A stretch of DNA of 64,000 nt from an uncultured Mollicutes bacterium (GTDB taxonomy: Bacteria > Bacillota_I > Bacilli_A > Acholeplasmatales > Anaeroplasmataceae). Where the stretch lies: positions 99,875 through 163,874 of the forward strand of contig CAMELE010000001.1 of the NCBI GenBank assembly GCA_945923475.1, read 5' to 3'. The notes beneath the pieces are model-generated. The model saw nothing but the letters and a program-made list of their open reading frames with translations. It searched no databases and was not told where the DNA came from. A program made the translations under genes and the position numbers. Shown piece after piece: positions 1 to 20,643 of the stretch (within the stretch, counting starts at the first letter, position 1; each line of letters begins with the position of its first letter).

Positions 1-15
1 AAGTGAGGATAAATT

Positions 16-216
16 ATGGAAAAAGAAATTGTTTATAGATATATGGGTTCTAACGGTATTATTGAATCTTCTATATAGTTAACAGGAATTCCTGCAACTA
101 CTTTATATAGATTAATAGCAGATTACAATAAAAAATTAACAAGAGATGGAAAAGAATTCTTTTCCATCTCTCCTTTAGTTCCTGAAAATGAATTAAAAGA
201 ATGGTATGAGGTTTAA
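16..216 (+). CDS. hypothetical small protein (66 aa; 1 in-frame TAG)
   Basis: ATG at 16 and TAA at 214-216. An in-frame TAG at 76-78 must be read as sense. Confidence 0.4.
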
Positions 217-249
217 ATAGGCCAGAATACATTGATTTAAATATAAAAA

Positions 250-294
250 AAATTAGGTTAAATAGGAAAAGAAACTATTTAACCTAATTTTTTT
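250..294 (+). terminator. rho-independent terminator
   Basis: Inverted repeat attaggttaaatag / ctatttaacctaat followed by a T6 run. Confidence 0.6.
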
Positions 295-312
295 AGAAAG
301 GAAGAGATAGAT

Positions 313-18100: not shown

Positions 18101-19129
18101 AGAACAGATAATTGGATATTTATCAAACCAATTTGAAGGAATGAATCCTTTCTTATAATCCTTTACTTCAACTTTTGGAATAATTTGTTTTCTTTCTAAT
18201 GAATAAAAAGAAATTTTATTTTGGATCTCTTGAGTGTTATCAAGAATCCAATTTATCAATTCTTTCCCTGTTTTATTATCTTTGTCCCAATCATTAGCAT
18301 AAGGTTCCATTAATTCAAAAATTTCATCACTTGTCATTAAGTAAGTAAATTTATAAAAATCATCAACTTCTCTTTCTCCTGGCTTAGAAGTAAGATATGC
18401 TTTATGAATGGGTCTATCTTCTTTAGTTAAATAATGTGCATCTGTTCCAACTACCATTTTTAAATCAAATGCCTTGGCGATTTGATAAATTTTATGATTT
18501 ACAATTATTTGTTCAGCATCAGTAGATGGCGCACATTCAAGATAAAAGTCATCTTTTCCAAATACTTTAATACAAAAATTGATATAATCAATTATTTGAT
18601 TGTAATATTTATTTTGAGTTTCAATATCTTTATTTAATTCTGCTTGGAACATTGGTAAAATACAACTACCAAGTTCTCCACCAATACAAGCAGTTGTTGC
18701 TATAACATGTCCTTTATATTGTTCCATTACCATTTCAAGTTCACTTTTTAAAGTAGGAACTCGTTCCATACGTCTATCAACATAACTATGAATCCAAGCA
18801 ATAGAACTTAATTCTCTTAATGCTTTATGTCCGATAGCATCTTTAGCAATAAGAATAAAGTGGTAATATTTTTGTCCGTTATCTCTTGTATCAGTAAGAT
18901 AAATTTCATTACCAAGAGCAATAGTAAAATCAGGATTTTTTTCTCTTATTTTTTTTGCATATTGATTTACTTCCATATGTGCAGAAAGACATTCATGATC
19001 TGTAATGGCAATGCCTGATAGCCCTAATTCTATTGCTTTATCAATAAGAGCTTGTGGTCTATTAATACAATCTAATAGACGTAAATTTGAATACATTGTA
19101 TGATTATGAATCCCGAAATATGATCTCAT
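15140..19129 (-). CDS. dnaE: DNA polymerase III alpha subunit (DnaE-type, PHP + polymerase domains; 1329 aa, no TAG)
   Basis: Uninterrupted ORF with an N-terminal PHP domain (GIHNHTMYS...AITDHECL). Confidence 0.85.
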   Translation of the reverse strand: MRSYFGIHNHTMYSNLRLLDCINRPQALIDKAIELGLSGIAITDHECLSAHMEVNQYAKKIREKNPDFTIALGNEIYLTDTRDNGQKYYHFILIAKDAIGHKALRELSSIAWIHSYVDRRMERVPTLKSELEMVMEQYKGHVIATTACIGGELGSCILPMFQAELNKDIETQNKYYNQIIDYINFCIKVFGKDDFYLECAPSTDAEQIIVNHKIYQIAKAFDLKMVVGTDAHYLTKEDRPIHKAYLTSKPGEREVDDFYKFTYLMTSDEIFELMEPYANDWDKDNKTGKELINWILDNTQEIQNKISFYSLERKQIIPKVEVKDYKKGFIPSNWFDKYPIICSLINSDNIQERYWVNECIKALQEKQLYDNENYLERLEIEADIIKDIGEKLDDCLFAYFNTFQHYINLFWECGSIVGPGRGSATGFLSNYLLGITQLDPIRWGLPYWRFLNKERAELPDIDIDLAPSKRPAIFEAIRKERGELGLVQVATFGTEGTKQSILTACRGYRSEEFPEGIDVDNAQYMSSLIPQERGFLWPIHDVIYGNEEKDRKPVQAFIREVNQYPGLLDIIVYIEGMVNKRSSHASGVILYGDDPFDTASFMRTPSGDMITCWDLHKAEAAGDTKYDFLVTEASDKIITCYQLLLKDKQIPELSLREFYNKYIHPEVIDTTDQAIWDHLAAGDVLDVFQFSTGVGLAIAKRLKPQNPMEMTAANAMMRLMSEKGKESQQDRYYRIQHSGIKVFDDEMKAQHLPQELIDKMHKHCDKYYGCCPIQEQMMEILMDVAHFTLGEANTARKIVAKKQMAKIPQLREQVFSKFDNEKSAEYFWEIAVAPQLGYAFSLNHSLPYSFVAIQMIYLVIHFNPIYWDTACLIVNSGSLEDNSEEEIVDIYAPEGDDLANGVTFEDLPDKSGKIRKTAATDYGKIAKAISDIQKAGIEVGLPDINKSKFGFAPDIENNKILFGLKGMLNVGDELVNTIIANRPYSNPKEFLYRIKPGKQAMISLIKGGAFDNMMDRKELMVWYIWETCDKKKRITLQNMGGLMKYDLLPEENENQIMARRIYEFNRYLKAICKTAKNNSLYQLDERAINFLVEIGEDNNIQFDGTNYYLNENTWNSIYQKWMDVFRAWIANNKDEILDNLNMKIFKDDWDKYANKNNLSAWEMEVLCYYYHTHELNNINNDKYGFVDFFKLPEDPIIDRSFTKGNHTIHIYKLFKICGTCIAKNKTKSTVTILTTTGPVEVKFRKEYFSLFDKQISERGADGTKHIVEKSWFNRGSMIVVSGIRNGDNFMSKKYASSGGHQLYKIDEILSNGDLVLKDARYQGGIEEDV

Positions 19130-19163
19130 TCACACATTCCTTTCATCTTTCATTTATATTTAT

Positions 19164-19192
19164 ATAATATCATATTATTTAATAAATATCAA
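19164..19192 (-). promoter_or_regulatory. sigma70-like promoter TTGATA-N17-TATTAT upstream of dnaE
   Basis: Consensus hexamers at 17-bp spacing. The extended motif tattatataaatataaatgaaag is shared with the promoter at 21456-21484. Confidence 0.5.
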
Positions 19193-19443
19193 ATCGAGAG
19201 ATATAATTATCGCATATACTACGAATATCTCTTAAAAAATTAGAAAAATCTTTTGATCGAGTTGATATCTTATTTATATTATCACAAACCATAGAATTTA
19301 GCATATCTAATTCTACATTTAAGTCATGAGCAAAAAGTTCTAAATTAGAGTTTAAATCCTAAGTTAAATCCGCGTCCTTAAGAAACATATTATTTTCAAG
19401 TATAGCATTAATACTTGAATTTAAATTAGATGTATTTAACATA

Positions 19444-20643
19444 TTACTTCCTTATAATTACTAATTTATCACTGGCTCTAGTAGCCATAGTATATAAATA
19501 TTTTTTATGTTCTTCTCGATCAAAAGGATGATTTTCTTCAAATCCTAATACTTTTCCATACTCGCTACCTTGCGCTTTCCAACAGGTAATAGCGTAAGCG
19601 TAGGAGAAATCAAATGGAGGATCGAGACATTGTTTATTATTTCTTAATTGATAACATTGGCTGCCCGTAAGAGTTCCTTCACCGGTAATAAGTTGTTTAT
19701 AATCAATTGGAGTTCCACAAAATTTATCTCCATCGCTTAAAACAATTTGAGTAAACATATAAGTAATAGGAACTTCTGAAATATAATAAGGGACTCGAAT
19801 GTCTTCAGTATAAAAATCTTCAATAGTCCCAACAGTACCATTAGTTAAAGCCCATACTCGATTTTCAGACATAAAATCCCAGTTATTATGTAATCCAATA
19901 ATTTTATCTCCGATTTGAGGGACATTAGGATCAAATCCTTTTCTTAATCGGACTACATTATTAATTTTAGTTCTTGTGGCATTTTTAGCACAAATAATCT
20001 AATCTGCCCAATCATACATTTCAGGTATAACTTGACTTTTATCATATACTCTCACTTGTTTTCCTTCTGGACGATAAGAAATTAAAGATTTACCTTCTCT
20101 AATCCACATTGAAAAACGAATAATCTCACTATCTTGCGCTTGACGCATAATTTCATCGAGAAAAATATGTGGTTTATCTAATACATGATTATTTTCATTA
20201 GGATCTACAGGAGGCAGCTGGCCAGGGTCGCCCGCCGCGATAATATAAATGCCATGAGTTAGCATCAAATCCCATAATTTTTTAGGAAGCATTGATATTT
20301 CATCGACAACAATTACTTTATATTGCGCTAATTCACTATTATCTTTTGGAAAGAATTTAAAAGTTCCATTAGCCATCATTTTAGCTTTATATAAGAGTTT
20401 ATGCGCAGTTGTTGCATTTGGGCAGCCTTTTTGTTGAAGCACAGTCGCAGCTTTACCTGTAAATGCCACATAACAAACTTCTTCTTCTGGATCAACATCA
20501 AGAGCAGAAATAATAAATTTAATCAAAGTGCTTTTTCCACTTCCCGCGTATCCCGCTATACAAGTCCAACGTTCATGAGCATAATAGCGCTCAACCGCAA
20601 TTTTCAATCCTTCTTCTTGTTTACGAGTTAATTCCATCTTCAC
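19444..20643 (-). CDS. SF1B RecD/Dda-like DNA helicase (399 aa, 1 TAG)
   Basis: Walker A GYAGSGKST and C-terminal AITCWKAQGSEY. The ORFs 19999..20643 and 19444..19872 join in frame across the TAG at 19999-20001. Confidence 0.7.

Follow-up and report, generated by a model that had tools for sequence, protein, structure and literature searches.

Mosaic use of TAG, most likely read as glutamine, among the genes of a 64-kb window from a large phage genome

Gene content of the window

We analysed a stretch of 64,000 nucleotides (hereafter the window; positions 99,875 to 163,874 of contig CAMELE010000001.1), which is part of a phage genome of ~190 kb that reads the codon TAG as glutamine, and we describe how in-frame TAG codons are distributed among its genes. 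A sequence-only reading of the same DNA had proposed that TAG use is mosaic, dense in late genes and homing endonuclease genes and absent from the largest replication genes, and that this bias fits a delay of late or lytic genes by recoded stop codons. The mosaic as a whole was confirmed: the 93 in-frame TAGs are confined to 34 of the 90 called genes and are clumped beyond random placement.

Genes were called with TAA and TGA as the only stops, and starts were chosen by a simple Shine-Dalgarno rule. The 90 genes comprise 19,879 codons with 474 CAA, 138 CAG and 93 TAG; TAG makes up 13.2% of the 705 glutamine-type codons. Under the standard code, 72% of the window is covered by open reading frames (ORFs) of at least 100 aa; the coverage is 90% when TAG is read through and 79% when TGA is read through. 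Recoding of TGA in the window was dropped as a candidate because the coverage rose from 72% to 79% only, compared with 90% for TAG, and recoding of TAA was dropped because its read-through inflates ORFs in all frames.

The window is AT-rich (28-41% G+C per 2 kb bin). Plus-strand genes extend to ~8.1 kb, beyond which the genes are on the minus strand up to 64 kb. No tRNA genes and no terminase gene were found in the window, and a search of the whole window against Rfam at the gathering threshold gave no match. Megablast of positions 1-20000 against phage records gave no match either, and the best match of the DNA polymerase III alpha subunit (Pol III alpha) in a phage collection was 39% identical and came from SPbeta-like Bacillus phages. 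This SPbeta-like Pol III alpha and the strong Shine-Dalgarno sites suggest that the host is a Firmicute. For comparison, 61 related IMG/VR loci were aligned gene by gene.

Decoding of TAG

TAG is a sense codon, and it most likely stands for glutamine. The nrdD gene (12275..14497, minus strand, 740 codons) carries five TAGs and matches the Pfam NRDD model from 2 to 562 across the internal ones; the fifth TAG is 3 codons before the stop and past the match. The Pfam matches of the RecJ-like exonuclease, the DnaB helicase and the endolysin also run across TAGs. In orthologues of at least 80% identity, a TAG of the window is aligned with TAG in 545 of 676 cells, and of the 131 cells in which the two differ, 88 have CAA or CAG as the partner. 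When the TAGs of the relatives were taken instead, the partner was CAA or CAG in 65 of 81 cells. Glutamine was also the commonest partner of TAG in distant orthologues (87/179). The called genes end with TAA (70) or TGA (20), which is partly a result of the calling rule. Only six of the 93 TAGs are within 10 codons of a gene end, and those six align with sense codons in relatives.

The putative suppressor tRNA was found in relatives. Seven of them, with 97-99% Pol III identity, carry a 90-nt tRNA(CTA) beside tRNA-Tyr within a large tRNA array. More distant relatives have tRNA(CTA) in a tRNA cluster immediately right of the window. An exact-match search for the anticodon arm found tRNA(CTA) only in close relatives other than the closest contig.

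The genetic code appears to differ among the related loci. Three of them (L016, L056, and L060) appear to use the standard code. Another three, whose Pol III alpha is 53% identical to that of the window, appear to use TGA, since a tRNA(TCA) is present (minus strand; L019 12245-12316, L020 12269-12340, and L025 22156-22227) and ORF coverage increases when TGA is read through. In these three loci the orthologue of the RuvC-like resolvase has 3-4 in-frame TGAs, while it has 3-5 TAGs in the TAG lineages. No in-frame TGA was found in the other orthologues compared in these loci. A close TAG-recoded relative (L135, contig _110853) has an 80-nt tRNA(TCA) at 7726-7805 (minus strand) that adjoins tRNA-Tyr and tRNA(CTA), and its array would thus hold two different suppressor-type tRNAs.

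Distribution of TAG among the genes

TAGs were redistributed at random among the glutamine-type codons in 20,000 runs. The observed dispersion of 185.6 was reached in none of the runs (simulated mean 86, maximum 154), and the 34 genes with TAG compare with a simulated mean of 47 and a minimum of 35. TAG makes up 27 of 101 glutamine codons in the plus-strand block, 9 of 25 in the endolysin, 15 of 46 in four endonuclease genes and 42 of 379 in the rest of the 8-46 kb region, and it is absent from the 154 glutamine codons of the 31 other genes at 46-64 kb (chi-square p = 7e-14). With the genes correctly called, TAG density is therefore not uniform and placement is strongly clumped. Nor are the TAG-free genes merely poor in glutamine. 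They contain 342 glutamine codons, which make up 3.0% of their codons as compared to 4.25% in the TAG-bearing genes, and low glutamine content was therefore rejected as the cause of TAG absence. Out of frame, TAG occurs in the TAG-free genes at ~14 per 1000 codons.

When the genes were taken singly and compared with the genome-wide share of 13%, only Pol III alpha was significant (0/50, p = 9e-4), while GyrA (0/22, p = 0.1), primase (0/13, p = 0.24) and gyrB exon 1 (0/7, p = 0.6) were not. In the genes that tolerate TAG, its share of glutamine codons is statistically uniform at ~28% (84/300; dispersion test P = 0.11). A two-state picture, in which a gene has either a TAG share of ~28% or none, fits best and better than a division into dense and sparse genes. 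Since the share is uniform, the genes described as dense are mostly just rich in glutamine. In this single genome, the 36% share of the endolysin is indistinguishable from the 28% of all tolerant genes. Compared with a 28% share, zero TAG has a probability of 7e-8 for Pol III alpha, 7e-4 for GyrA, 1e-3 each for the SPFH and the vault-like gene, 7e-3 for Thg1, and ~1e-2 each for the AAA_24 gene, primase and ligase.

The plus-strand block and the upstream ORF

The block at 16..8077 (plus strand) is of the late type and contains 11 called genes, each with at least one TAG. The gene at 5173..5619 (phrog_21718, function unknown) does have seven TAGs in 148 codons, as had been noticed before, and this is the highest TAG density per codon. 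Seven of its 13 glutamine codons are TAG, and the density is high because 8.8% of its codons are for glutamine. Its orthologues have 4-8 TAGs, with CAA or CAG instead of TAG at several sites. The gene at 2695..3723 (plus strand, 342 codons) had been called a tail fibre with four TAGs. The four TAGs (out of six glutamine codons) were correct, but the label had no family or database support, as neither Pfam nor PHROGs nor tblastn against phage records gave a match. Pfam and PHROGs gave nothing for the genes at 313..3723. The holin gene at 3758..4168 (plus strand; phrog_13712, E = 8e-38) has one TAG. A response-regulator-like gene at 4213..4929 (minus strand; phrog_8810) has two TAGs in the N-terminus of the receiver domain if the longer ORF is used; in the short ORF the Pfam Response_reg match starts at profile position 42.

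In a relative of 98-99% identity, an ORF of 2583 aa (L100 255-8006, plus strand) is directly left of the window position. It has 26 TAGs out of 82 glutamine codons. Its C-terminus had only a sub-threshold Pfam match to leucine-rich repeats of the BspA type, and the product is probably a giant protein of the virion or an adhesin.

There are two side observations on this block. The response-regulator-like gene (4213-4929) is alone on the opposite strand and is flanked by a bidirectional terminator (4167-4210) and sigma-70-like hexamers (5032-4982). The C-terminal ~100 residues of the gene at 2695..3723 (window 3400-3723), compared by eye and without alignment, resemble a fibre-like ORF near the tRNA cluster of a relative (L085 62-640, plus strand), and this likeness suggests exchangeable receptor-binding tips.

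Replication, repair, nrd and lysis genes

The minus strand from 8 to 46 kb encodes replication, repair, nrd and lysis genes. Pol III alpha (15140..19129, 1329 codons) has 50 glutamine codons (47 CAA and 3 CAG) and no TAG. DNA primase (25329..26432, 367 codons; phrog_47) has no TAG in 13 glutamine codons, and GyrA (34985..37360, 791 codons; Pfam DNA_topoisoIV and DNA_gyraseA_C) has none in 22, a zero that depends on the choice of start since the longest ORF has one TAG 8 codons past its first ATG. For these three genes and gyrB exon 1 the earlier claim of zero TAG was correct. The ATP-dependent DNA ligase (33775..34893; Pfam DNA_ligase_A_M), with a promoter at 34951..34923, has no TAG either. 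For DnaB, the claim of 400 codons without TAG was wrong, because the 400-codon gene begins at an internal methionine. The full-length gene (26619..28151, 510 codons; Pfam DnaB_C and a DnaB N-terminal match at 13-98) has TAG at codons 22 and 58. Both are inside the N-terminal match and are kept as TAG or CAA in relatives.

Several other replication and repair genes of this region also carry TAG. They are the RecJ-like exonuclease (22922..24670, 582 codons, seven TAGs; Pfam DHH and RecJ_OB), the RecD-like helicase, nrdD together with nrdG (within 10766..14497, one TAG; Pfam Fer4_12), and a RuvC-like Holliday junction resolvase (phrog_159, three TAGs). The resolvase forms a promoter-distal pair at 8113..9132 with an unknown gene (phrog_827, three TAGs). 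Thus, the contrast between TAG-free replication genes and TAG-rich late genes held for Pol III alpha, GyrA, gyrB and primase, but not for these genes and DnaB.

The lysis cassette (42921..44619) is bounded by terminators at 44677..44646 and 42917..42881. It contains the endolysin (43318..44619; Pfam Phage_lysozyme2 and Amidase_2), whose nine TAGs are the largest absolute number among the window genes, and a small gene without TAG (42921..43316) that appears by eye to encode two transmembrane segments. NrdD, the RecJ-like gene and the endolysin had been marked as TAG-bearing before, and their five, seven and nine TAGs agree with this. A conserved gene with a GIY-YIG domain (32090..33103; Pfam GIY-YIG) has three TAGs and follows a terminator at 33147..33119. 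Read by eye, its N-terminus has transmembrane and coiled-coil segments.

On the leader of the gene at 8113..8541 (8542-8619, minus strand), we noticed by eye that CCTCCTTCC could pair with the gene's own ribosome-binding site GGAAGGAGG. This may be a translational control hairpin.

gyrB insertions and other mobile elements

The gyrB gene (minus strand; Pfam HATPase_c, DNA_gyraseB, Toprim, and DNA_gyraseB_C) has three exons at ~42118-40593, 39549-39347, and 38299-38117, all TAG-free, with two insertions of ~1.05 kb between them. The three-exon structure follows from the closest relative (L038), in which the gyrB pieces are contiguous. Another relative (L036) has the second insertion only, and thus the insertions are polymorphic at the exact exon junctions. 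Each insertion encodes a GIY-YIG homing endonuclease (Pfam GIY-YIG; minus strand). The first (39701..40474) has six TAGs out of 16 glutamine codons and the second (38445..39134) has five out of 11. No group I intron core was found by Rfam in 37800-42300 at E up to 1, although a divergent core interrupted by an ORF could escape such a search. The stretches just 3' of both endonuclease ORFs (insertions 39550-40592 and 38300-39346, minus strand) look alike in translated frames, which suggests that the two insertions are related to each other.

There are two HNH-type endonuclease genes on the minus strand, one at 49610..50092 (HNH; phrog_2255, E = 8e-30) and one at 57165..57908 (HNH/homing-endonuclease-like; phrog_559, phrog_9084, and phrog_7140). 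Each of them has two TAGs. The statement that each homing endonuclease gene has at least five TAGs is therefore true for the two GIY-YIG genes in gyrB but not for the HNH-type genes. Related copies of 57165..57908 in other loci have 2-6 TAGs. In addition, a two-gene insert between nrdG and nrdD (11257..12278, minus strand) has two and three TAGs (5/9 glutamine codons). It is found in only a few relatives, and its copies in one lineage share 92-98% identity with it although the Pol III alpha identity of that lineage is only 82%, which suggests a mobile cassette of unknown type.

The TAG-free block at 46-64 kb

The block at 46236..64000 (minus strand) would be the first to be transcribed. Its only TAGs are in the two HNH-type endonuclease genes, and the remaining 31 genes have none. 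CAG makes up half of the glutamine codons in the block. Its Pfam content includes SPFH, Metallophos, Thg1, YqeY, RNA_ligase, cREC_REC and vault-like domains. Two of the genes are especially rich in CAG. The SPFH/flotillin-like gene (46858..48243, minus strand) has one CAA and 20 CAG, a foreign-looking codon use, and is in a region of 37.5% G+C. The vault-like gene (62127..63998, minus strand; Pfam MVP_shoulder and Vault_3) runs past the window, has one CAA and 19 CAG, and is higher in G+C than its surroundings.

Promoters and transcription units

A generic sigma-70 scan gave the same counts as shuffled sequence and was uninformative in this AT-rich DNA. A more specific sigma-70-like motif, TTGAYW-N16-18-TATWAT followed by an ATWTATA tract, was found in 16 copies where 2.6 were expected. 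Thirteen of the 16 are intergenic minus-strand copies that precede a gene by 30-73 nt, and 12 of these 13 first genes lack TAG. One member (19164..19192) is directly upstream of Pol III alpha, and another (42753..42781) is upstream of a unit that contains a DUF5662 gene, gyrB, RNase H and gyrA. The members of the 46236..64000 block are at 62071, 58419, 54201, 52054, and 50974. The sole member with a TAG-bearing first gene (28740..28768) is upstream of 28674..28141, which has two TAGs. All of these are on the minus strand, as is a sigma-70-like promoter, TTGACA-N17-TATAAT (10760..10788), upstream of the TAG-free genes at 10726..9166.

Transcription units were drawn from the family promoters and strong predicted hairpin terminators. 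The promoter-led units have 19 TAGs in 404 glutamine codons (4.7%), all in three of the 14 units. The minus-strand genes that follow a terminator without a family promoter have 27 in 100, similar to the 27 in 101 of the plus-strand block, which has no member of the family. The unit types differ in TAG share (Fisher p ~1e-9). These post-terminator genes are the lysis cassette, 32090..33103 and its neighbour, 21504..21965, and the nrdD-nrdG group. No family promoter precedes the lysis cassette or the nrdD-nrdG group, and the latter is preceded by a hairpin. The hairpins before TAG-bearing genes run directly into ribosome-binding sites and leave no room for a promoter. When intergenic regions upstream of TAG-bearing genes were inspected by eye, no common late-promoter motif was apparent.

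The tRNA(CTA)-containing tRNA arrays of close relatives are likewise dense in this promoter family, on the strand of the tRNAs. One copy shares its strand with tRNA(CTA) and precedes it by ~1 kb.

Conservation and selection

The absence of TAG is conserved. In each of 28 related loci Pol III alpha has 0-2 TAGs, and in none of 33 loci does GyrA or gyrB exon 1 have any, including lineages that use TAG freely elsewhere. Across relatives at 53-99% identity, Pol III alpha, GyrA and gyrB have from zero to at most two TAGs. The presence of TAG is conserved as well. The RecJ-like gene has 5-14 TAGs in every TAG-using lineage and none in standard-code relatives, and for the GIY-YIG gene at 32090..33103 the count is 3-9 across TAG-using lineages (4-9 in the relatives).

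Among orthologues of at least 90% identity, 69% of the TAG sites are invariant, as are 69% of the CAA sites and 21% of the CAG sites in the same genes. In these orthologues, TAG had taken the place of CAG in 33 of 479 cells for TAG-bearing genes and in two of 577 for TAG-free genes, while exchange of CAG for CAA was seen in both. Since replacement by TAG is rare in the TAG-free genes while that by CAA continues, TAG is kept out of these genes by selection rather than by a shortage of mutational opportunity.

Possible explanations of the mosaic

We consider it likely that the genes are partitioned by compatibility with the two readings of TAG, the TAG-free ones being readable early in infection and the TAG-bearing ones once suppression is effective. 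A phage-encoded tRNA with the anticodon CTA, from a tRNA array outside the window, would decode TAG as glutamine. The first-transcribed block, Pol III alpha, GyrA and GyrB, primase, ligase and others would form the class in which TAG is forbidden, and they could be translated while TAG is still a stop. From the onset of infection, host RNA polymerase would transcribe both these genes and the suppressor, as their common promoters suggest. In the late block, the lysis cassette, the genes after terminators or distal to promoters, and the mobile endonucleases, TAG would be an ordinary glutamine codon, and full-length protein would be made only after suppression has become effective. Thus, the endolysin and the intron endonucleases would be untranslatable early although they are inside early/middle transcription units. 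What the data show is the recoding, the mosaic and its conservation, the selection against TAG in TAG-free genes and the link with the promoters. For the rest, the family promoters would have to be early ones, suppression would have to rise with time, and the delay would have to be of value to the phage.

A number of points weigh against this reading or limit the earlier suggestion of a delay. That the genes are early is judged from promoter consensus and gene order. Gene starts were assigned heuristically and are approximate, and three in-frame TAGs are probably outside true coding sequence. Two of these are 5' of the likely starts of the PhoH/PIN and RNase H genes (44682..46004 and 37329..37877), and the third is in intron sequence before gyrB exon 3 (38117..38401). 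The boundaries of the transcription units were drawn after the TAG counts were known, and one promoter-led unit opens with two TAG-bearing genes including DnaB. When the promoter analysis was repeated automatically on 16 divergent TAG-using loci, the TAG share was 9.5% in promoter-first genes and 16.7% in the others, and the TAG-free fractions were alike (61% and 57%). Because replication and repair genes carry TAG, the split is not one of replication versus late genes. The tRNA(CTA) was found neither in the window nor in the single closest contig, either in the ~20 kb that was read right of the window or with the exact-match search for the anticodon arm. There is no 5' bias of TAG positions within genes, and TAG sites are as stable as CAA sites and no more so. 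The data are accounted for equally well by a passive split into genes that tolerate TAG and genes that do not and by an evolved device for delay. The earlier suggestion that the bias fits a delay by recoded stops is therefore partly supported. Gene class, position, conservation and the promoters agree with it, while the uniform share of ~28%, the lack of 5' bias and the TAGs in replication genes limit it.

The compatibility partition can be extended, tentatively, to the idea that amber codons are a second lock over transcription. One strongly conserved promoter family of the host type would serve the suppressor arrays and all TAG-free genes, the TAG-bearing genes of cellular type would follow terminators, and the mobile endonucleases would be silenced early by their TAGs. 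If this is true, the genetic code would be a compatibility barrier that confines introns and endonucleases to the recoded phage population. In the sister lineages that apparently use TGA, the sole gene seen to be interrupted by TGA is the resolvase, which bears TAG in the TAG lineages.

It is also possible, though we doubt it, that TAGs were positively selected as a delay device in lysis, homing endonuclease and late structural genes. The endolysin has the most TAGs (9/25 glutamine codons) inside the minus-strand early/middle region, within the 18 kb first-transcribed block only two endonuclease genes have TAG, and the RuvC-like resolvase is recoded by TAG in one lineage and by TGA in a sister lineage. 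Borges et al. (10.1101/2021.08.26.457843) also reported that lysis genes and an intron endonuclease significantly prefer recoded codons. However, no gene stands out from the uniform share (P = 0.11) when its glutamine content is considered, TAGs are not concentrated near 5' ends, where blocking translation would cost least, and TAG sites and CAA sites are retained equally well.

An unlikely explanation is that read-through is always incomplete and that long, essential or highly expressed genes purge TAG regardless of timing. The largest enzymes (Pol III alpha with 1329 and GyrA with 791 codons) are indeed TAG-free, and in the more heavily recoded L010/L027 lineage the large TAG-free enzymes gain TAG last, with 1-2 each. 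However, the 2583-aa ORF of the 98-99% relative has 26 TAGs, NrdD (740 codons) and the RecJ-like gene (582 codons) have five and seven, and the 31 mostly small genes at 46-64 kb are all TAG-free. Within the 8-46 kb block, TAG share was not correlated with length (Spearman rho = 0.10, p = 0.5), and gene length was dropped as a cause on these grounds and because of the 2583-aa ORF.

It is less likely still that the TAG-free genes were recently gained from standard-code donors and are too young to have acquired TAG. The SPFH and vault-like genes, which are CAG-rich, higher in G+C and foreign-looking, and the use of CAG for half of the glutamine codons at 46-64 kb are in line with such an origin. 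However, Pol III alpha uses CAA and CAG (47 and 3) like the rest of the genome, and Pol III alpha, GyrA, gyrB and primase are present in relatives of 53-99% identity with no or almost no TAG. Among near-identical genomes, change from CAG to TAG is ~20 times rarer in TAG-free genes while change from CAG to CAA goes on. A recent foreign origin may hold for the SPFH and vault-like genes; for Pol III alpha and gyrase it does not.

Finally, the lack of tRNA in the window might suggest that the code is standard and that the TAG-interrupted genes are pseudogenes or assembly errors, but this is hardly credible since Pfam domains match across TAGs, TAG positions are kept in ~20 independent contigs and exchange with CAA/CAG, ORF coverage increases when TAG is read through, and close relatives encode tRNA(CTA).

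Comparison with known recoded phages

Stop-recoded gut phages including crAss-like, Lak, Jade, Sapphire and Agate phages were described by Borges et al. (10.1101/2021.08.26.457843). In that study late and lysis genes were recoded, recoding of replication genes was variable, an intron endonuclease in an early gene of a TGA-recoded phage was heavily recoded, and clades of ~150-210 kb mixed codes 11, 15 and 4. The clade of the window phage has in common with those phages a suppressor tRNA (seen here in relatives), hosts presumed to use the standard code, in-frame recoded stops in late structural genes and lysis genes, replication genes that are recoded to a variable degree, a heavily recoded intron endonuclease inside an early gene, and mixed codes within the clade. 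Recoded stops are found here in the holin (1), the endolysin (9), the 11 genes of the plus-strand block and the upstream 2583-aa ORF (26), and the presumed early genes other than the endonucleases can be read with the standard code (0/154). The pattern matches the published model and offers no new principle. There are three differences. The endonucleases are recoded with TAG here and not with TGA, the TAG-free class is tied to a conserved promoter family that is also within the suppressor-bearing tRNA arrays, and lysis genes are not enriched beyond the uniform ~28% in this single genome.

The gut phage phAss-1 (proposed Phassvirus; PMC10607447) has a genome of 136 kb, uses TAG for glutamine, encodes tRNA-Sup(CTA) genes and has TAG interruptions in 28% of its ORFs. 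Like the window phage, it is a large gut phage that reads TAG as glutamine in a minority of ORFs. It is nevertheless of a different lineage and has no sequence similarity to the window (megablast, window 1-20000; Pol III alpha best match 39%, SPbeta-like Bacillus phages).

Intron endonucleases of the T4 I-TevI type are delayed through late promoters and through RNA structure that hides the start site. The gyrB insertions may be analogous, since in both cases a GIY-YIG endonuclease is in a self-contained insertion of an essential early/middle gene and would be made late. In contrast to T4, the proposed block here is by in-frame amber codons, and there is no Rfam group I core in the gyrB insertions.

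The additions made here are the corrected TAG counts of DnaB and the endonucleases, the two-state description, the selection against TAG at the population level, and the promoter association. The ~20 near-identical genomes and the graded relatives on standard, TAG and probably TGA codes are a test bed in which the idea of delay can be tested gene by gene. Useful features for this are the sharp two-state partition, the promoter family that marks both the TAG-free class and the suppressor arrays, and the natural presence/absence variants of TAG-rich intron endonucleases within a TAG-free gyrB.

Other features

Genes of the RNA-repair type are found on the minus strand at 52332-57163 and 60865-61185. 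They encode a Thg1-like tRNA-His guanylyltransferase, YqeY, an RNA-ligase-like protein, several metallophosphoesterases and a receiver domain of the cyclic-phosphate-processing kind. The vault-like protein, a relative of the major vault protein, has 832 aa in the related locus L085. In the same locus, a RAGATH-33 RNA of the tRNA cluster (2878-3006, plus strand; 126.8 bits, above the gathering score) is ~7 kb right of the window end, directly after tRNA-Leu(TAA).

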